Shown here: positions 13,037 through 58,721 of the stretch, in pieces
Numbering within the stretch: position 1 is the stretch's first letter
Layout: every line of letters starts with the position of its first letter
Source: Bacillota bacterium
Lineage (GTDB): Bacteria; Bacillota; Clostridia; Monoglobales; Firm-18
DNA length: 64,000 nucleotides
Assembly: GCA_022706765.1 (NCBI GenBank)
Contig: JAKJBX010000001.1
Span: 140,534-204,533 of the forward strand
Reading direction: 5' to 3'
Notes under the pieces: model-generated
What the model saw: the letters and a program-made list of their open reading frames with translations, nothing else
The model's database searches: none
Told to the model about the DNA's origin: nothing
Made by a program: the position numbers and the translations under genes

Positions 13037-14168
13037 GTGATTTTGTTGCTGGAATTTGAAGAATACCGCTTGTCATTGGACGGGCTTGAAAAGGACATCA
13101 ATGAATTGAGGGATTCACTTTGACATCGCAGGGACGAACGCCCAGATAGCCGAGCTTGACGGGCAGACCACCGCCGCGGACTTTTATGCCGACATGGACA
13201 ATGCACAAAAAATCATGCAAAAGTCCAAGCAGTTAAAGGACAAGGTGGCACGCTTTGAGGCGCTCAGCAGGCACTGGGAGGACCTTGTTACACTGGTGTC
13301 GCTCGGTATTGAGATGGAGGACGTCAGCGTTTTGGACGAGGTGAAGCAGGGATACCAGAGCTTTACCCTTGCGCTTGAAAATATGCGCCTTGAAACGCTG
13401 TTGTTTGGCACATATGATAAAAACAACGCCATCATGACGCTCCATTCGGGGGCGGGCGGCACCGAGGCGCAGGACTGGGTCGAAATGCTGCTGCGCATGT
13501 TCACACGCTGGGCGGAGCGCAGAGGCTTTAAGGTCGAAACGCTCGACCTGCTTGCGGGTGAGGAAGCAGGCGTCAAAAGCGCGACCATTTTGATTGAGGG
13601 ACTGAACGCCTACGGCTACGCAAAGTCCGAGATGGGCGTCCACAGGCTGGTGCGTATTTCCCCGTTTGACGCCTCGGGGCGCAGGCACACCTCCTTTGCG
13701 TCGGTCGAGGTCATGCCCGAAATCAATGACGACATCCAGATCGACATCAGTGCGGAGGATCTGCGTGTTGACACTTACCGTGCGAGCGGGGCGGGCGGGC
13801 AGCACGTCAACAAGACGGACAGCGCCATCCGGATAACCCACATCCCGACAGGGGTGGTCGTATCCTGCCAAAGCGAGCGCTCACAGCATAAAAACCGTGA
13901 CACCGCCATGAAGATGTTAAAGTCCAAGCTGATGCAGCTTGCCGAGCAGGAGCACAAGGATAAAATCGAGGACTTAAAAGGCGTGCAGAAGGATATTGCG
14001 TGGGGCAGCCAAATACGCTCGTATGTGTTCCACCCGTATAATTTGGTCAAGGATCACCGCACGGGCTTTGAAATGGGTAACATCGGCGCCGTTATGGACG
14101 GCGAGCTTGACGGCTTTATCAACGCCTACTTAAAGGCTGCGTCACTGGGGCAGCTGAACTTGAAATAA
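13037..14168 (+). CDS. prfB: peptide chain release factor 2, made via programmed +1 frameshift
   Basis: Frame 0 (GTG 13037 or TTG 13043/13046) encodes about 28 aa ending LRDSL and stops at TGA 13121-13123. The +1 frame from GAC 13122 continues into the 13194..14168 ORF. That ORF carries SPF (RISPFDASG) and GGQ (SGAGGQHVNKT). Confidence 0.9.
13108..13124 (+). promoter_or_regulatory. RF2 autoregulatory +1 frameshift site
   Basis: An SD-like GAGGGA (13108-13113) is followed by 4 nt and then CTT TGA C (13118-13124). This is the same architecture as the E. coli/B. subtilis prfB site. Confidence 0.85.
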
Positions 14169-14222
14169 AGGGCGGCGGCTAAGCGCCGACGCCCGTATTT
14201 GCGATACTTGGAGGAATCACTA

Positions 14223-15290
14223 TTGTTTGATAAACTGTCATTTTTGGAGCAGCGGTACGACGAGCTGTGCGGTGCGGTCAGCGACCCTGAGGTCATCGCC
14301 GACCAAAATAAATTCAGGCAGCTGTGCAAGGAGCAGTCCGACATCACGCCGATCGTCGAAAAATACCGTGAATACAAAGCGGCAAAGCAGGCGGTGGAGG
14401 AAGCGCGAGAGATGCTGGGTGAATCGCTTGACAAGGACTTTCGGGAACTGGTGCAGGCGGAGTTTGACGAGGGACGTGAAAAAATCGTCCTACTTGAAGA
14501 TGCGCTGCGTATCCTGCTGCTGCCCAAAGATCCCAACGACGACAAAAATGTCATCGTTGAGATTCGGGGCGGAGCGGGCGGCGACGAGGCGGCGCTTTTT
14601 GCCGCAAATCTTTTGCGCATGTATTCGATGTACGCCGAAACCAAGCGCTGGCGTGTCGAGGTCTTGAATATGAACGCCACCGAGCTGGGGGGCATCAAGG
14701 AAGTATCCTTTGAAATCAACGGTCAGGGCGCATACAGCAGGCTCAAATACGAGAGCGGCGTCCACCGTGTCCAAAGGATACCGTCCACCGAGAGCGGCGG
14801 GCGCATACATACCTCGACCGTGACGGTGGCGGTGCTGCCCGAGGTGGAGGAGGTCGAAGTCGACATTGCTGCCAACGACCTGCGCATCGACGTTTTCAGG
14901 GCGGGCGGTCCGGGTGGGCAGTGCGTCAACACCACCGACTCCGCCGTGCGCATCACCCATGTCCCGACGGGGCTTGTCGTGTCCTGTCAGGATGAAAAAT
15001 CCCAGCTGAAAAACAAGGACAAAGCGATGAAGATCCTGCGCTCACGCCTGTATGAGCTGATGCAGAGCAGGCAGAACGCCGAGATCGCCGAGCAGCGTAA
15101 AAGTCAGGTCGGCACGGGTGACAGGAGCGAGCGTATCCGAACCTATAACTATCCGCAGGGGCGTGTCAGCGACCACCGGATCGGGCTGACTATCCATAGG
15201 CTCGACGCCGTTTTGAACGGCGACCTGGACGAAATTATCGACGCGCTGAACACGCATTATCAGTCTGAGAAACTCAAAGGCGAACTATAA
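14223..15290 (+). CDS. prfA: peptide chain release factor 1
   Basis: Carries the RF1 motifs PST ([10 protein letters not shown]) and GGQ ([12 protein letters not shown]). GGAGG at 14210-14214 lies 8 nt before TTG 14223 ((M)[11 protein letters not shown]). Confidence 0.95.
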
Positions 15291-21344: not shown

Positions 21345-21373
21345 TTTACAATTCAATAAAGATGCGATATAAT
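21345..21373 (+). promoter_or_regulatory. sigma-A type promoter upstream of divIC-like gene
   Basis: TTTACA (21345-21350), a 17-nt spacer, then TATAAT (21368-21373). Confidence 0.45.
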
Positions 21374-21404: not shown

Positions 21405-21719
21405 ATGGCTGTGTCATCAGGCGTGAAAAATAAATCGAAGCAGAAAAAGAACAGACCTTTCATATTTGTTCTTGTTCTTGTTATGTTTGGATACTTTGCG
21501 TGGGTGTTCACCATGCAGCAGATCGAGTTTTACAGCCGAAACAAGGCGCTGGCACAAATTGAGCGGCGGATTTCCGCCCAGCAGCAGCTTTCCGAAGAAC
21601 TTGCCCGAAAATATGAGATGGTGAATTCCCCCGAATATATCGAGAAAATGGCGAGGGAGCAGCTTGGCTACGCACGGTCTGACGAAACCATTTATTATGA
21701 CGCCACAATGAAGCGTTAG
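21405..21719 (+). CDS. divIC: septum formation initiator family protein (FtsB/DivIC)
   Basis: A single TM helix plus a coiled coil, with C-terminal EYIEKMAREQLGYARSDE. GGAGG lies 6 nt before ATG 21405. Confidence 0.75.
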   Translation: MAVSSGVKNKSKQKKNRPFIFVLVLVMFGYFAWVFTMQQIEFYSRNKALAQIERRISAQQQLSEELARKYEMVNSPEYIEKMAREQLGYARSDETIYYDATMKR

Positions 21720-21731
21720 GGTAATTACTTT

Positions 21732-22012
21732 TTAGGCATAGGGGAGTCGAACCCGCATAGGTTTTGGGTGGTGGATTTGTGCTCGTGCGGCGCAAAATCT
21801 TTTGGCAATACGTCAGTATTACCTGCGTGATTTTGCTTGCCCAAACAAAAATCCACTCATCCACAACTGCGTAGCACCCCTGCCGTCGGAATTTTGGATG
21901 GATTTTTTGGGCGGAGGACGAAGCCTTGCTGACGCAAGGCAAGGACGACAACGGCAAAATACGCAAAAATTATACGGCAGGGGCTGTGTGTGTTTGACTC
22001 CCCTATGCCTAA
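21732..22012. repeat. 281-bp element closed by a 21-bp terminal inverted repeat (MITE-like or large structured RNA)
   Basis: ttaggcataggggagtcgaac (21732-21752) pairs with gtttgactcccctatgcctaa (21992-22012); 20 of 21 pairs are Watson-Crick and one is G-T. There are several internal complementary segments and no ORF. The right arm is repeated at 23788-23819. Confidence 0.6.
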
Positions 22013-22042
22013 GACAAGCTTTAAGGAGGATTCGGGTAAAGT

Positions 22043-22465
22043 ATGGAAGTTGAAATCGGCAAAATCATTGAGGGAAAGGTGACAGGCATTACGAATTTCG
22101 GCGCATTTGTTCAGCTCAGCGTCGGCAAGACCGGTCTGGTACACATTTCCGAAGTAGCGCTTGCATATGTCAAGGATATCAACGAACACCTTAAAGTGAA
22201 CGATGTGGTAAAAGTCAAGGTCATTTCGATTGACGACAAGGGGAAGGTCAGTCTTTCGATCAAAAAAGCGCTGGAAGACGAGCAAAGGAAAGCTGCCCGC
22301 AAGCCTGCGAACGTCGAGTTCGGACAAAAGGGTGCGCCTACGGAGCTTTCGTTTGAAGATAAGATGAAGCAGTTTATGCAAAATAGCGACGAGAAGATGA
22401 CCGACCTGCGCAGAAACATGGACTCCAAGCGCAGCGGCGGCGGATACAGACGCTCCGCGCATTAG
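22043..22465 (+). CDS. S1 RNA-binding domain protein (YabR-like)
   Basis: The S1 domain reads GKIIEGKVTGITNFGAFVQL...GLVHISEV. AAGGAGG lies upstream. Confidence 0.85.
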   Translation: MEVEIGKIIEGKVTGITNFGAFVQLSVGKTGLVHISEVALAYVKDINEHLKVNDVVKVKVISIDDKGKVSLSIKKALEDEQRKAARKPANVEFGQKGAPTELSFEDKMKQFMQNSDEKMTDLRRNMDSKRSGGGYRRSAH

Positions 22466-22560: not shown

Positions 22561-22596
22561 AGCTGTGTTCTGCCAATGCAGAATACAGCTTTTTTT
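22561..22596 (+). terminator. Rho-independent terminator of yabR-like gene
   Basis: A 13-bp stem agctgtgttctgc / gcagaatacagct with a caat loop, followed by T6. Confidence 0.75.
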
Positions 22597-22812
22597 GACT
22601 TATAGGAAATCCTTTCCTATAAGTCAAAAACATTTAATTGATTCCTTGGCAAAGGGTCATGTCAGCGTACCAAAAAGTGCCGTAAGGCACTTTTTGACTT
22701 ATAGGAAATAGGGATTTCCTATAAGTCAAAAACATTTAATTGATTCCTTGGCAAAGGGTCATGTCAGCGTACCAAAAAGTGCCGCAAGGCACTTTTTGAC
22801 TTATAGGCAATT
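22592..22812. repeat. tandem repeat, 2.2 copies of a 99-102 bp unit made of two hairpins and a conserved spacer
   Basis: Units start at 22597, 22696 and 22798 (gacttatagg...). Each has a long palindrome (tttttgacttataggaaat...atttcctataagtcaaaaa), the spacer catttaattgattccttggcaaagggtcatgtcagcgtacc, and the hairpin aaaaagtgcc-G(T/C)AA-ggcacttttt. Confidence 0.9.
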
Positions 22813-22883
22813 ACGCAAAACCGGCGCAATTTCTGCGCTCCGGCGAAGTAAATTCCGCCTGTGCTTTCGCCTGCTGTGTCCGC

Positions 22884-23498: not shown

Positions 23499-23787
23499 AA
23501 ACACAAATTTCGACATCAAGAAAATTTATCCCGCAGTACGCAGCGGTACGTTGAATTGATTGCGCCGCCGAAATTTTTCTTGCAAAGAGCGCTTGGAAAC
23601 GGCGATCAATTATACCATTATCTTAGCATATCTTAAAAGGGTATATAAAATGATTGCCTGAGAAAGCAAAAAAACACGCTTAAAATTTTGTTTGAGAACA
23701 ACGCAGAAGCCATCCTGTTATATATGCCCGGCACTGATTCAGGCAGGCAAGGCAATTCAAAAACGGGTTCATATTTGAATTGCCTTG

Positions 23788-23819
23788 CTTAGGCATAGAG
23801 GAGTCGAACACACACAGCC
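23788..23819 (-). repeat. solo copy of the right arm of the 21732-22012 element
   Basis: The reverse complement ggctgtgtgtgttcgactcctctatgcctaag matches ggctgtgtgtgtttgactcccctatgcctaag (21982-22013) at about 29 of 32 positions. Confidence 0.7.
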
Positions 23820-23824
23820 CTTTG

Positions 23825-24007
23825 CTATTTCTTTTTGTACAGCTGTGTCACAGCTCCCAGTATCACGCCCACGCCGGCGCCGCAGCAAAGCCACAGCACC
23901 ACGTTATTCAGCAGTGCGCCCAACAGAATCCCCACTGCTGCGCAAAGTCCGATAGCGGTACCAAGATTCCAGTAATCCGTCATATGCCGCTTTTTGTTTT
24001 TTGACAT
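23825..24007 (-). CDS. small glycine-zipper-like membrane protein (60 aa)
   Basis: AAGGAG lies 8 nt before the ATG. The hydrophobic core is GTAIGLCAAVGILLGALL..CCGAGVGVILGAV. The family is unknown. Confidence 0.55.
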   Translation of the reverse strand: MSKNKKRHMTDYWNLGTAIGLCAAVGILLGALLNNVVLWLCCGAGVGVILGAVTQLYKKK

Positions 24008-26554: not shown

Positions 26555-27691
26555 TCAGCCGAATAGAGACAGCAGGATACCCGCAGCAACTGCTGAACCA
26601 ATCACACCAGCTATATTAGGTCCTATCGCATGCATTAGCAGGAAATTAGCAGGGTTTGCTTTTTGCCCTTCAAGGTGAGATATTCTTGCGGCCATCGGAA
26701 CAGCCGACACTCCGGCAGACCCAATCAAAGGATTTACTTTCCCCTTTGTAATCCAATACATTAGTTTACCTAAGAGCAACCCGCCAACAGTGCTGAAAAT
26801 AAATGCCAGTAAACCAAGTCCGATAATCATTAATGTTTGTGGACGCAAAAAGGTTTCTGCCGCTGCGGTAGCGCCGACTGTAACACCAAGAAATATTGTA
26901 ACAATATTGATTAAAGCATTTTGCACGGTTTCAGACAAGCGTTCAACAACACCCGACTCCTTAAACAAATTCCCAAGCATTAACATTCCAATCAAAGGTG
27001 CTACGGAAGGTAACAAAAGCACGCATAGGATTGTAACGATAATTGGGAAACATACCTTTTCCAGTTTTGATACGCTGCGAAGCTGGGTCATTCCAGTTTC
27101 TCTTTCTTTTTTTGTAGTCAGCGCACGCATAATGGGCGGTTGAATCATAGGGATAAGGGCCATGTATGAATAGGCTGCAATCGCAATAGCGGGCAGTAAT
27201 TCAGGCGCTAACTTTGACGTCAGAAAAATTGCGGTAGGTCCATCAGCACCTCCGATAATCGCAATAGAAGATGCTTCTCCGGGCTGAAACCCTAAAGCAG
27301 TTGCAATAACAAATGCAACACAAATTCCAAACTGCGCACCCGCACCTAAAAACAAACTGCTTGGCCGCGCGATCAATGGACCGAAATCGGTCATTGCTCC
27401 TATCCCAAGAAATATAAGGGACGGGTATATTCCCTTTTTCACGCCCAAATACAGATAATAAAGCAAGCCGCCCGATTCAGAAGCGTTTGCGGGTTCACCC
27501 ATCAATCCGGTTAATGGAAGATTTACGAGTAATATCCCAAAAGCGATTGGAAGCAGCAAAAGCGGTTCGAATTTCCGAACAACAGCCAAATAAATCAATA
27601 TGCAAGCAATAACAATCATGATTAAGTGCTGCCAAGTAAGCACAATAAAACCCGATGACTCCCATAGCCCCTGTAATGCATCAATAAACAT
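26555..27691 (-). CDS. oadB: sodium ion-translocating decarboxylase beta subunit (OadB/GcdB/MmdB family)
   Basis: A 378-aa polytopic protein. Its N-terminus (LQGLWESSGF...LIMIVIACILIYLAV.KFEPLLLLPIAFGILLVNLP) is typical of the family. Confidence 0.9.
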   Translation of the reverse strand: MFIDALQGLWESSGFIVLTWQHLIMIVIACILIYLAVVRKFEPLLLLPIAFGILLVNLPLTGLMGEPANASESGGLLYYLYLGVKKGIYPSLIFLGIGAMTDFGPLIARPSSLFLGAGAQFGICVAFVIATALGFQPGEASSIAIIGGADGPTAIFLTSKLAPELLPAIAIAAYSYMALIPMIQPPIMRALTTKKERETGMTQLRSVSKLEKVCFPIIVTILCVLLLPSVAPLIGMLMLGNLFKESGVVERLSETVQNALINIVTIFLGVTVGATAAAETFLRPQTLMIIGLGLLAFIFSTVGGLLLGKLMYWITKGKVNPLIGSAGVSAVPMAARISHLEGQKANPANFLLMHAIGPNIAGVIGSAVAAGILLSLFG

Positions 27692-28064: not shown

Positions 28065-28293
28065 TGTTATTGGCGCAGTTAGAAGTATAATCTTTCATTT
28101 TACCATTATATGCGTAATCGGCAATTCAAAACCACTCGATAAATTCCTGTTTATCTGCTATCATATACAAATGCTTATCAACTTCGCTTTTACTGTATGA
28201 AATAAAGAAATCAATCACTTTTACAAGCAATTGACTTCTTTCGACAAACATTTTGCCTTTGTTGCTCAAAAAAGATGCAGGTTGTTTTCGGGC

Positions 28294-28346
28294 ATAAAAA
28301 TTCGCCCATAGCAATTACTATGAGCGAAATAAACGGACAATGTCCG
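28294..28346 (-). terminator. hairpin pair and terminator immediately 3' of tRNA-Val (conserved with the tRNA-Leu flank)
   Basis: On the minus strand, the hairpin cggacattgtccg is followed by the stem ttcgctcatag/ctatgggcgaa (one mismatch) and TTTTTA. It differs from 36337-36399 at 5 of 63 positions. Confidence 0.65.
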
Positions 28347-28423
28347 TGGTAGAGACAGCGGGATTCGAACCTGCGACCTCTCGCATGTGAAGCGAGCACT
28401 CTAACCAGCTGAGCTATGCCTCC
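28347..28423 (-). tRNA. tRNA-Val (anticodon CAC)
   Basis: The reverse complement is GGAGGCATAGCTCAGCTGGTTAGAGTGCTCGCTTCACATGCGAGAGGTCGCAGGTTCGAATCCCGCTGTCTCTACCA. It folds as a cloverleaf with anticodon loop TTCACAT and an encoded CCA. It has one A-C mismatch in the T stem and G-U pairs in the acceptor stem. Confidence 0.8.
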
Positions 28424-28488: not shown

Positions 28489-28605
28489 TTTTTATCTGAT
28501 AGGAAATTTTTTAAATTTCCTATCAGATAAAAACATTTAATTCATACCTTGATAAAGGGGTTCGTTTGGCATCAAAAGCGACGAAAGCGCTTTGTTCCCC
28601 CGCCA
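28489..28605 (-). repeat. diverged copy of the 22592-22812 repeat unit
   Basis: The palindrome ttttatctgataggaaattt / aaatttcctatcagataaaa is followed by aaaaacatttaattcataccttgataaagggg. Compare aaaaacatttaattgattccttggcaaaggg at 22626. Confidence 0.6.
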
Positions 28606-36290: not shown

Positions 36291-36346
36291 TTTGGGATAT
36301 TTTAAATGGTATGTTATACAAACAAGGATGCAAGCGGGTTTCGGGC

Positions 36347-36399
36347 ATAAAAATTCGCTCACAGCAATTGCTGTGAGCGAATTAAACGGACAATGTCCG
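36347..36399 (-). terminator. hairpin pair and terminator immediately 3' of tRNA-Leu (conserved with the tRNA-Val flank)
   Basis: On the minus strand, cggacattgtccg is followed by the 13-bp stem attcgctcacagc/gctgtgagcgaat and then TTTTTA. Confidence 0.75.
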
Positions 36400-36487
36400 T
36401 GGTGCTGGTGACCGGAATCGAACCGGTACGGGGTATTAGCCCGCAGGATTTTAAGTCCTGTGCGTCTGCCAGTTCCGCCACACCAGC
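36400..36487 (-). tRNA. tRNA-Leu (anticodon TAA)
   Basis: The reverse complement is an 88-nt class II tRNA (GCTGGTGTGGCGGAACTGGCAGACGCACAGGACTTAAAATCCTGCGGGCTAATACCCCGTACCGGTTCGATTCCGGTCACCAGCACCA). The anticodon loop is CTTAAAA, there is a long variable arm, and CCA is encoded. Confidence 0.9.
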
Positions 36488-41609: not shown

Positions 41610-42197
41610 ATGAAAAGGATCATATTAGCGTCCGCCTCGCCCAGGCGCAGGGAGCTTTTGACTCAACTGGGGCTTCAATTTGATGTGGCGGTGTCGGATG
41701 CGGACGAAGCTTTTGACAAGCATCTATCGGCGGAGCAAAACGTGATGCGCATTGCCTCCGGCAAGGCAAAAGCGGTGGCGTCACAAATAGACGGCGACTG
41801 TCTCATCATCGGCGCCGATACGGTGGTCTGCTGCGGCGAAACGGTGCTGACCAAGCCGCCTGACGAGCAGTCAGCCTTTGGGATGCTGCGGATGCTCAGC
41901 GGCAGGACGCATACCGTTTATACGGGCTTTGCGGTGCTGAGGACAAGCGACTTTCAGCTGGAAACCGGCTGTGAACAGACGCAGGTCACCTTTCGTGATT
42001 TAACGGACGAGGACATCGCAGGCTATATCAAAACGGGAGAGCCGATGGATAAGGCGGGCGGCTACGGCGTTCAGGGCATCGGCGCGGTGCTGGTGCGCGC
42101 TATCTGCGGCGATTACAGCAATGTGGTCGGGCTTCCTCTCGGCAGCCTTGCGCAGACGCTCGGCAAATTCGGGATAAAAATCTTATCATCAAAATGA
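41610..42197 (+). CDS. maf: Maf-like nucleoside triphosphate pyrophosphatase
   Basis: Contains IILASASPRRRELL, GADTVV and GAYGIQG-like GGYGVQG. GTG 41601 is an alternative start. Confidence 0.9.
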   Translation: MKRIILASASPRRRELLTQLGLQFDVAVSDADEAFDKHLSAEQNVMRIASGKAKAVASQIDGDCLIIGADTVVCCGETVLTKPPDEQSAFGMLRMLSGRTHTVYTGFAVLRTSDFQLETGCEQTQVTFRDLTDEDIAGYIKTGEPMDKAGGYGVQGIGAVLVRAICGDYSNVVGLPLGSLAQTLGKFGIKILSSK

Positions 42198-42310
42198 AGC
42201 GTTCTGGCGCATAGCGCTTTCCCGAACGCATCCGCTCGCCGCGCGAGCGTGAGCGCAGGTAAATTCATTTTACCGCAGTGCAGAAATTGCGCCGGTTTTG
42301 CGCAATTTCC
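42198..42310 (+). repeat. structured intergenic repeat, copy A (between maf and mreB)
   Basis: About 75% identical, without gaps, to 58607-58721 over the first 92 nt. Hairpins are gcgttc../..gaacgc, ggtaaa-ttca-tttacc and gaaattgcgc-cggtttt-gcgcaatttc (42283-42309). Confidence 0.7.
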
Positions 42311-42334
42311 AATAAATAAAAAGGAGACAGATAA

Positions 42335-58606: not shown

Positions 58607-58721
58607 AAGTGTTTCGGCGCGTAGCGCTTTCCGAAACGCATCTTATCGCCCCGCGAGGGTAAGCGCAGGCGAATTTATTTCGCCGAAGCGTGGAAATTAC
58701 AACATAAATGTTGTAATTTCC
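58607..58721 (+). repeat. structured intergenic repeat, copy B (between thioesterase gene and rplS promoter)
   Basis: It is homologous to 42198-42310. Hairpins are gtgtttc../..gaaacgc, ggcgaa-tttat-ttcgcc and ggaaattacaaca-taaa-tgttgtaatttcc (58692-58721). Confidence 0.7.

Follow-up and report, generated by a model that had tools for sequence, protein, structure and literature searches.

A 281-bp non-coding segment bounded by an inverted repeat lies between divIC and yabR at positions 21732-22012 of the stretch of DNA analysed here, 64,000 nucleotides (nt) from a Bacillota bacterium of the class Clostridia (contig JAKJBX010000001.1; the whole stretch is referred to as the window). We read this segment, with a probability of roughly 0.6, as a single copy of a palindromic mobile DNA element that is non-autonomous and resembles a miniature inverted-repeat transposable element (MITE); the family it belongs to has units of ~277 nt with a closing repeat of 20-27 bp, two arms of ~108 nt and a conserved central junction. 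A first-pass annotation of the window, made from the sequence alone, had offered two readings, a MITE-like insertion and a large structured RNA; the former has gained from empty sites in relatives, a precise junction, copies in unrelated contexts and both orientations, deletion derivatives that are themselves multi-copy and a remnant of another copy inside the window.

The window carries a Clostridia sporulation/division gene cluster (a spoVB-like flippase gene, yabO, yabP, yabQ, divIC, yabR and spoVT), in which the element has divIC upstream (21405-21719, plus strand; 104 amino acids, Pfam DivIC, of the same length as in relatives) and yabR, encoding an S1-domain protein, downstream (22043-22465, plus strand). 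The divIC stop codon is 12 nt before the element, the yabR start codon is 30 nt past it, and the yabR ribosome-binding site AAGGAGG (22023-22029) is intact 11 nt past it; the insertion would have been at a TA within this interval. We compared the locus with contigs encoding the closest YabR homologues (76-81% identity). Three related lineages keep this gene order, and at the six loci drawn from them the divIC-yabR spacer measures 42-46 nt, against 323 nt in the window, and in Vescimonas fastidiosa the spacer between the two genes is likewise short, which agrees with the first-pass statement that this spacer is ordinarily a short one. The window junction reads ...TTACTTTT-TA-(GGCATAGG...CCTATGCC)-TA-AGACAAGCTTTAAGGAGG, with the element in brackets, and the empty site in the relative L059 reads ...ATTATTATA-TA-AGACAAGCTTTAAGGAGG (...TATA-TA-AGACAAGC); the right flank GACAAGCTTTAAGGAGG is conserved right up to the element's last base, and a TA precedes this flank in the empty site. 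Judged from these alignments, gain of the element in the window's lineage is the parsimonious reading. Exact-protein look-ups with the window YabR, DivIC and SpoVT returned one same short JGI contig or nothing.

The left TA (21733-21734) is either part of a target-site duplication or the element's own terminal dinucleotide, and the right TA (22010-22011) matches the TA present at the relatives' empty site. The initial statement that no target-site duplication was visible is probably wrong, as TA stands at both ends and at the empty site and had been counted within the repeat; a 2-bp target-site duplication is a plausible account of the flanking TAs.

The left arm of the closing repeat, TTAGGCATAGGGGAGTCGAAC (21732-21752), pairs with the right arm, GTTTGACTCCCCTATGCCTAA (21992-22012), through 20 Watson-Crick pairs and one G-T over 21 nt, precisely as first described. 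None of 100 shuffles of the window gave a comparable inverted-repeat match, and a repeat finder allowing mismatches lengthens the arms to 29 nt (86%). Folded as RNA, the element reaches -134.8 kcal/mol on the plus strand (z = -8.5 against shuffled sequence) and -126.8 kcal/mol on the minus strand (z = -9.4), and as single-stranded DNA it has a z of -9.1; the predicted fold consists of the closing stem and two long arms. All parts are given on the plus strand. The outermost is the left terminal inverted repeat GGCATAGGGGAGTCGAAC (21735-21752), which we call type 1 and which is antisense to the T-arm and acceptor 3' strand of a tRNA, opposite the right terminal inverted repeat GTTTGACTCCCCTATGCC (21992-22009) with its one G-T. 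Inside it lies the P1 extension (helix 1), whose 5' strand CGCATAG (21754-21760) pairs in the fold with the 3' strand CTGTGTG (21984-21990) and covaries among members. Arm A (21761-21867) starts with a conserved GGTTTTG, ends in CA(C/A)AAC and carries the apical hairpin AATAC-N4/5-GTATT. It is followed by the central junction TGCGTAGCA (21868-21876), a TGC-N3-GCA mini-palindrome, and by arm B (21877-21983; helices 7-10), which has the base helix CCCCTGCCGT/ACGGCAGGGG, a conserved GGCAAAA motif and the apical hairpin GCCTTGC-TGAC-GCAAGGC, and whose middle part is degenerate in the window copy. Three of the four interior pairings originally listed (gcaaaatc/gattttgc, cccctgccg/cggcagggg and gccttgc-tgac-gcaaggc) occur in the minimum-energy fold; the fourth, tggatttgt/acaaaaatcca, was partly right, the true helix being GTGGATTT/AAATCCAC. 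Similarly, the element had been said to hold no open reading frame (ORF): overlapping ORFs do exist, but their frame is not conserved in the homologous copies, so that no conserved ORF is present.

To find further copies, genome and metagenome collections were scanned once each with the 18-mer terminus. This returned three copies in different contexts of one metagenome (L041, complete, and L036 and L038, each ending at a contig end) and full-length copies in two uncultured Clostridia metagenome-assembled genomes (MAGs; L009 and L023). The window copy is 74% identical to L041, and BLAST of L041 against plasmid records gave a match of 71% identity (211 nt, E = 2e-16) on an 860-kb replicon belonging to Vescimonas fastidiosa MM35. 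The V. fastidiosa copy (L062 2975-3251, NZ_AP023416.1 ~189629-189905) lies directly after the yabR terminator, inside the yabO-yabP-yabQ-divIC-yabR cluster, so the element adjoins yabR in two genera, upstream of it in the window and downstream of it in V. fastidiosa, either by coincidence or because the site is an insertion hot spot. Among phage records, the V. fastidiosa copy and the window copy matched human-faecal scaffolds by BLAST (L063 and L184), and a stricter pattern built on the core found further members on IMG/VR viral contigs (L190, L192, L194 and L195). The V. fastidiosa-like copies, whose terminus we call type 2, share the interior of the window family (GGTTTTGACGGGCAGAAAT...; ...CAAAACTGC-N-GCACCTGCCAGCG...; ...GGCAAAAAGCGCC...). 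Ten full-length members measure 272-285 nt, the eleventh, L063, reaching 332 nt through a 55-nt insert in arm B. No neighbouring gene is common to the copies, and relative to the neighbouring genes four copies are sense and four antisense. The copy-number check suggested at the outset has in this way turned up homologous copies in unrelated contexts and both orientations, beside the empty sites in relatives.

The window itself holds the inverted, 32-nt remnant of a second copy (23789-23820, plus strand), which takes in the terminal repeat and the P1 extension and breaks off after the opening bases of arm B. The terminus is here repeated a third time (23789-23809); the match reaches 23784-23820 and, against the reverse-complemented right end of the element, shows 92% identity over 38 nt (nhmmer E = 2e-4). 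It stands directly after a 50-nt hairpin (23743-23792; context 23743-24007) and overlaps the 3' flank of a membrane-like ORF of 60 amino acids (23825-24007, minus strand) with no Pfam match. Two other loci show copies in unusual positions. In L038 (5895-5934) a full copy and a truncated right terminus, CTCCCCTATGCt, meet at a TA common to both (...CCTATGCtTAGGCATAGG...), as though the TA beside an older copy had served as the insertion site of a newer one. At L009 2860-2939 a minus-strand ORF of 259 amino acids enters the element 80 nt before its stop codon, and the insertion appears to have replaced that ORF's original C-terminus and stop.

Several matches were discarded. In other phyla most matches to the 18-mer terminus were chance or real tRNAs; those at L019 and L028 fall in coding sequence, apparently a V-type ATPase gene by translation, and the DNA at L039 and L048 looks non-bacterial. 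A first, loose version of the core pattern gave at least 120 matches on viral contigs, none of them homologous by nhmmer at E <= 1e-3. We found no paper on the terminal sequence, and nothing relevant on MITEs in Oscillospiraceae or Ruminococcaceae.

The family also includes short forms. One, a hairpin with an 8-nt loop (TCCACACG or its complement), is present at five or more loci (L011, L001, L053, L043 and L020) in one MAG and its source metagenome; others measure 44 nt (L037), 33 nt (L051) and ~110 nt (L003). They derive from the long form through deletion between microhomologies (GGTT...GGTT; GGCA...GGCA). L037, for example, joins 27 nt of an L041-type left end to 16 nt of the right end, and the 8-nt-loop form is explained by a deletion from the GGTT of the conserved GGTTTTG to the GGTT of the right repeat. 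Since this deletion form has itself multiplied, spread requires no more than the termini. Type 2 has its own deletion forms: L184 is without arm A, L186 and L187 are plain hairpins and L185 is partial. We considered whether the core had been inserted into pre-existing hairpins, the short forms being the empty targets, and rejected this since they retain core-derived bases and microhomology deletions explain them. A RidA protein adjoining one short form was found on a single contig only.

All full-length members share the three-way-junction fold, and covariation was assessed in MAFFT alignments that had not been fitted to any structure, for sets of 6 and 9 sequences. In the six-sequence set 81.5% of cells are paired, falling to 36-49% when the partners are slid along the alignment, and in the nine-sequence set 76.1%, falling to 37-48%. 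Pairs changed on both sides number 30 with six sequences (6-9 with partners slid; 13.4 +/- 2.7 when shuffled) and 82 of 114 with nine (40-58 slid; 50.4 +/- 4.1 shuffled), values reached by 0/500 shuffles in either set; counted by cells, the nine-sequence set has 180 changed on both sides against 57-95 with partners slid. In arm A alone (helices 2-5, nine sequences) 26 pairs are changed on both sides. The window copy and L041 differ by 11-14 compensated double changes and only 2-3 uncompensated ones, and compensation extends into the terminal repeats, with GAGG/CCTC in L009 against GGGG/CCCC in the others, and TCGAC/GTCGA in L184 against TTGAC/GTCAA. The invariant columns lie mostly in and around the junction (AAC-TGC...CACC), above all in its TGC and GCA arms, the preceding AAC and the following CC (A133-C138, C143-C146); the remainder are the GGTTTT with which arm A opens, a TTT and some scattered single positions. 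With covariation this strong, the structure is not incidental, and as complementarity has been kept through many compensatory changes, the folded single strand, be it DNA or a transcript from either direction, matters for the spread of the element or its tolerance.

Such a signal is also what a structured non-coding RNA family would leave, that is, a ~277-nt RNA gene or cis-acting RNA with a three-way junction that spread horizontally and acts at the RNA level, for example by binding YabR. Beyond the covariation, the near-constant length fits this explanation, as does the unpaired junction (GGTTTTG...CAAAAC-TGC-N-GCA-CC), which is invariant despite differing P1 helices; the element adjoins yabR both in the window and in V. 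fastidiosa, and the window copy very probably lies inside the divIC-yabR transcript. Large structured RNAs without a known function, such as raiA, ROOL, GOLLD, HEARO and OLE (Rfam), resemble it in running to hundreds of nucleotides, in covarying strongly and in conserving the nucleotides of their junctions. They differ in that the window element has no Rfam match, no strand asymmetry, an insertion polymorphism and deletion derivatives that spread. The orthologous spacers of all close relatives are without the element, its orientation relative to flanking genes is random, it has no promoter or terminator of its own, and short forms that have lost the core still multiply. No Rfam family matched the element, either in a scan of the whole window at the gathering threshold or in one of the element at E < 10 (4227 models), nor did any match the homologues L062 and L041 at E < 1; the permissive scans gave only spurious microRNA-type matches, all outside the element. 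The first-pass annotation had likewise seen no RNase P, tmRNA, SRP or 6S signature. The pairs themselves show no strand-specific G-U signal either, and we consider an RNA-level function unlikely; as a dedicated RNA gene, the second of the two initial readings is not borne out.

Three further candidates were set aside. An intrinsic terminator or attenuator was rejected, as there is no U-tract beyond the stem on either strand. For a retron non-coding RNA no reverse transcriptase neighbour was seen, the flanking genes encoding DivIC and the S1-domain protein. In a bridge-RNA-like scheme the interior loops showed no consistent complementarity to the element ends, the only recurrence being the same-sense AAGGGCAAA in type 2.

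The two strands behave alike. Consensus pairs include 58 G-T and 43 A-C, an A-C being a G-U on the opposite strand, so G-U is not favoured, and neither strand is consistently the better folded: the lower minimum free energy belongs to the plus strand in seven members and to the minus strand in three, with one about equal. Watson-Crick complementarity is preserved symmetrically on both strands, as expected of a DNA-level palindrome or of an element that folds whichever strand is read. This brings in a second alternative, a REPIN-like, hairpin-dependent single-stranded DNA element, in which a domesticated HUH enzyme (RAYT or IS200-IS605-type) reads the hairpin and inserts it 3' of TA without duplication. 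REPIN/RAYT systems consist of a paired inverted-repeat hairpin with compensatory changes, present in many copies and moved by a single-copy enzyme encoded elsewhere, and they have been described mainly in Proteobacteria, a point that counts against the comparison with a Firmicute. Selection here acts on complementarity itself, the terminal repeat included (L009 and L184), both strands fold equally well, the short forms are plain hairpins like paired REP sequences, and the empty sites fit a TA-ending element inserted after TA as well as they fit a duplication. The ends nonetheless bear no GTAG-type REP signature, the interior is branched and the element much larger, the ends of IS200/IS605 are not inverted repeats, and neither a RAYT gene nor another Y1/HUH transposase was seen in the window. 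On balance this explanation seems to us improbable.

Several observations weigh against a conventional MITE. A classical MITE keeps its terminal repeats constant, since these are what the transposase reads, and lets its interior drift; the family studied here shows the reverse, the interior core and junction being the most conserved parts and the terminal repeats varied. At least six sequence types of closing repeat, unrelated or half-related, surround the conserved core: that of type 2 is wholly different from that of the window, though again flanked by TA (TA-CCATCGGTTGACAAGGGCAAACA...TGTTTGCCCTTGTCAACCGATGG-TA), L190 has the terminus TAGGCTGAGGCTACCCGAGCCC, L192 has TAGCCGAAGAGAGCCGAAC, which shares the inner half of type 1, and the termini of L194 and L195 are unrelated and without TA flanks. 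Copies of types 1-4 have TA on both sides, with the next outward base variable and non-complementary across the two sides, and those of types 5 and 6 lack it. Where TA is present it fits a duplication or an element ending in TA alike, and since the left flank has diverged in the nearest relatives the two are not separable. The interiors of the window copy and L041 are nearer to type-2 L062 (71%) than to type-1 L009 and L023 (65-68%). The ~60 substantial ORFs of the 64-kb window are all housekeeping genes, with no transposase, integrase or HUH enzyme among them, and none was found in the annotated V. fastidiosa loci or among the ORFs next to other copies that were searched against Pfam, namely those beside L190, L192, L194 and L195. 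An autonomous element with the same ends was not found in plasmids, phages or viral contigs. Finally, one copy and one remnant are visible in the window, the multi-copy sets having been seen in other genomes and metagenomes.

The interior similarities conflict with terminus type, and the termini and the core therefore have different histories; termini have been exchanged between core lineages. Because core, length and junction are conserved across at least six terminus types among which such exchange has occurred, we keep a third alternative open, though as a doubtful one, in which the functional unit of a structure-defined mobile element would be its conserved three-way-junction core of ~277 nt and not the terminal repeat. 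The core could be recognised by a dedicated enzyme, or could form part of its own mobilisation, for example as guide or scaffold, acting as single-stranded DNA or as RNA from either strand. The closing helix would then be an exchangeable module, replaced in the window's lineage by a palindromised tRNA 3' end. If true, the family would make up a new class of mobile element in Clostridia, defined by structure, and would not be an ordinary MITE of transposase and inverted repeats.

The tRNA-like character of the type-1 terminus needs separate treatment. The terminus is antisense to GTTCGACTCCCCTATGCC, which spans the T-loop, the T-stem 3' strand and the acceptor 3' strand; six of 34 genome matches to the 18-mer are real tRNA genes (Arg, Ala or Glu), and among annotated phage records 13 of the 30 matches listed, and with them most of the longer ones, coincide with an annotated tRNA gene. 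An identity of 18-20 nt with the T-arm and acceptor 3' strand of real tRNA genes could point to a scar of integration at a tRNA 3' end, an integrase attachment site or a tRNA pseudogene, and a possible parallel is seen in a Christensenellales MAG (L024 3854-4320; JAXJLD010000082.1). There, tRNA-Ala(GGC) is followed by tandem units of ~160 nt, two complete and the start of a third, each with the tRNA's last 20 nt (CCA included), its terminator hairpin and a repeat of its T-arm/acceptor in inverted orientation (GGCATAGGGGAGTCGAACC); this array may be the origin of tRNA-like inverted termini, or an array of tiny integrated units. Neither ARAGORN nor Rfam placed a tRNA at the element locus, however, the window's three tRNAs all lie elsewhere and none has a 3' end equal to the type-1 terminus, no integrase is nearby, and the two copies of the terminus are inverted, whereas attL and attR are direct repeats. 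Members with the same core and termini of types 2-6 are not tRNA-like, so the resemblance is a trait of one terminus module and not of the family, which largely refutes a tRNA-derived origin of the element and leaves it very unlikely. An inverton, in which a site-specific recombinase would flip the segment and so control yabR, might be suggested by a 21-bp inverted repeat around ~240 bp just upstream of a gene, but is hardly credible given the lack of a promoter-like site inside it, the lack of a recombinase in the window, the relatives without the segment and the family forms with an interior of only 8 nt.

We return to a MITE-like mobile element as the favoured reading. The analysis shows an insertion that belongs to a family with a conserved fold, deletion derivatives and variable termini; which enzyme mobilises it, whether TA is duplicated or is the element's own end, and any influence on expression are inferred. 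As the element carries no gene, its movement would depend on an enzyme supplied in trans from another place in the genome, for which the simplest candidate would be a TA-targeting cut-and-paste transposase of the IS630/Tc1-mariner type. A single-strand HUH-type enzyme recognising the folded hairpin is a less likely mover, yet it would fit the empty-site data equally well and would account more naturally for the selection on complementarity. The element is probably transcribed within the divIC-yabR operon, because a promoter-like site lies upstream of divIC (21345-21373) and a promoter/terminator scan placed no terminator-like site between the two genes; the scan also placed neither kind of site inside the element. 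In the divIC-yabR transcript its ends would pair perfectly over at least 20 bp, giving a stem that RNase III might plausibly cleave, and such cleavage could alter the processing or stability of the mRNA.

In its inverted repeats, TA ends, dispersed copies, size variants from internal deletion, empty sites and end-pairing transcript the window copy matches reviewed bacterial MITEs, namely Correia, RUP, ERIC and CIR (PMC2229807). The closest parallel among these is with Correia/NEMIS elements of Neisseria, which are small, non-coding and dispersed between genes, with terminal inverted repeats of ~24-26 bp and TA termini, occur in internal-deletion size variants, have no identified cognate transposase, and give transcripts whose 5' and 3' ends pair into a long stem processed by RNase III (PMC2229807). 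The window element is likewise small and non-coding, with TA termini, an end-pairing stem, internal-deletion variants and no transposase found. It differs in being a three-way junction of ~277 bp rather than a single stem-loop of 100-155 bp, and in its conserved core and variable termini, the terminal repeat being the conserved part in Correia; there is no sequence similarity and the phylum is another. RUP of pneumococcus is a Firmicute MITE that targets TA, for which IS630-Spn1 has been proposed as the trans-acting transposase (PMC2229807). The window element likewise stands at TA, but RUP is 107 bp long and its inverted repeats resemble a known IS630 member, whereas no insertion sequence with matching ends was found for the window element. 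Transcripts of CIR (Caulobacter/Brucella) have two arms and a linker with a phylogenetically conserved structure, and ERIC is a small dispersed enterobacterial repeat with terminal inverted repeats and TA termini (PMC2229807, Table 1). Both differ from the window family in sequence, size and taxa, and CIR has no long closing stem. The structure of ERIC is also conserved across genera. Neither CIR nor ERIC is known to swap terminal repeats around a conserved core.

Other features of the window were recorded in passing. The yabR-spoVT spacer (22571-22811) holds ~2.4 tandem units of 102 nt, each with a perfect palindrome of 18-19 bp (TTTTTGACTTATAGGAAAT / ATTTCCTATAAGTCAAAAA); a related copy with a 21-bp perfect palindrome lies at 28489-28533 (recorded region 28489-28559), and the promoter/terminator scan flagged this family as terminator-like. 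A third intergenic repeat family of ~90-125 nt is GC-rich with internal hairpins (GCGCATAGCGC..., GCGCAGG-N-CCGC...) and occurs at 42197-42322, at 58607-58698 and, inverted, at 22794-22854, the copies being 77-82% identical. The source genome thus appears rich in small dispersed repeats. On the minus strand, one module of ~80 nt stands after both tRNA-Val(CAC) and tRNA-Leu(TAA) (28268-28349 and 36321-36402; 81% identical), with a small hairpin ACGGACATTGTCCGT and a terminator-like stem, then TTTTT. A Na+ riboswitch aptamer (RF03071; 27942-28010, minus strand; 42.5 bits against a gathering score of 40.5) lies upstream of the gene for the beta subunit of a Na+-transporting oxaloacetate decarboxylase (26555-27691, minus strand), a sensible combination of riboswitch and gene. 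After secA there are two adjacent release-factor ORFs with PCRF and RF-1 domains (13194-14168 and 14199-15290), the first of which starts at PCRF profile position 22, as expected for prfB with a programmed +1 frameshift.

Read as a mobile element, the segment explains the oddly long divIC-yabR spacer as a recent insertion that has left both genes intact. It belongs to an uncatalogued repeat family of gut Clostridia, among them the cultured human-gut V. fastidiosa, with a sharply constant size, no Rfam entry and a covariation signal among the strongest to be expected from so few sequences. Pipelines for RNA-motif discovery are liable to be misled by the family, in that it has the appearance of a large structured RNA and the behaviour of mobile DNA. 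Its reversed conservation, incongruent termini and tRNA-mimicking ends pose the question of whether the end sequence or the fold is recognised in mobilisation, and where such elements lie inside operons, as is probable here, they can create RNase III sites that affect the expression of cell-division and sporulation genes.

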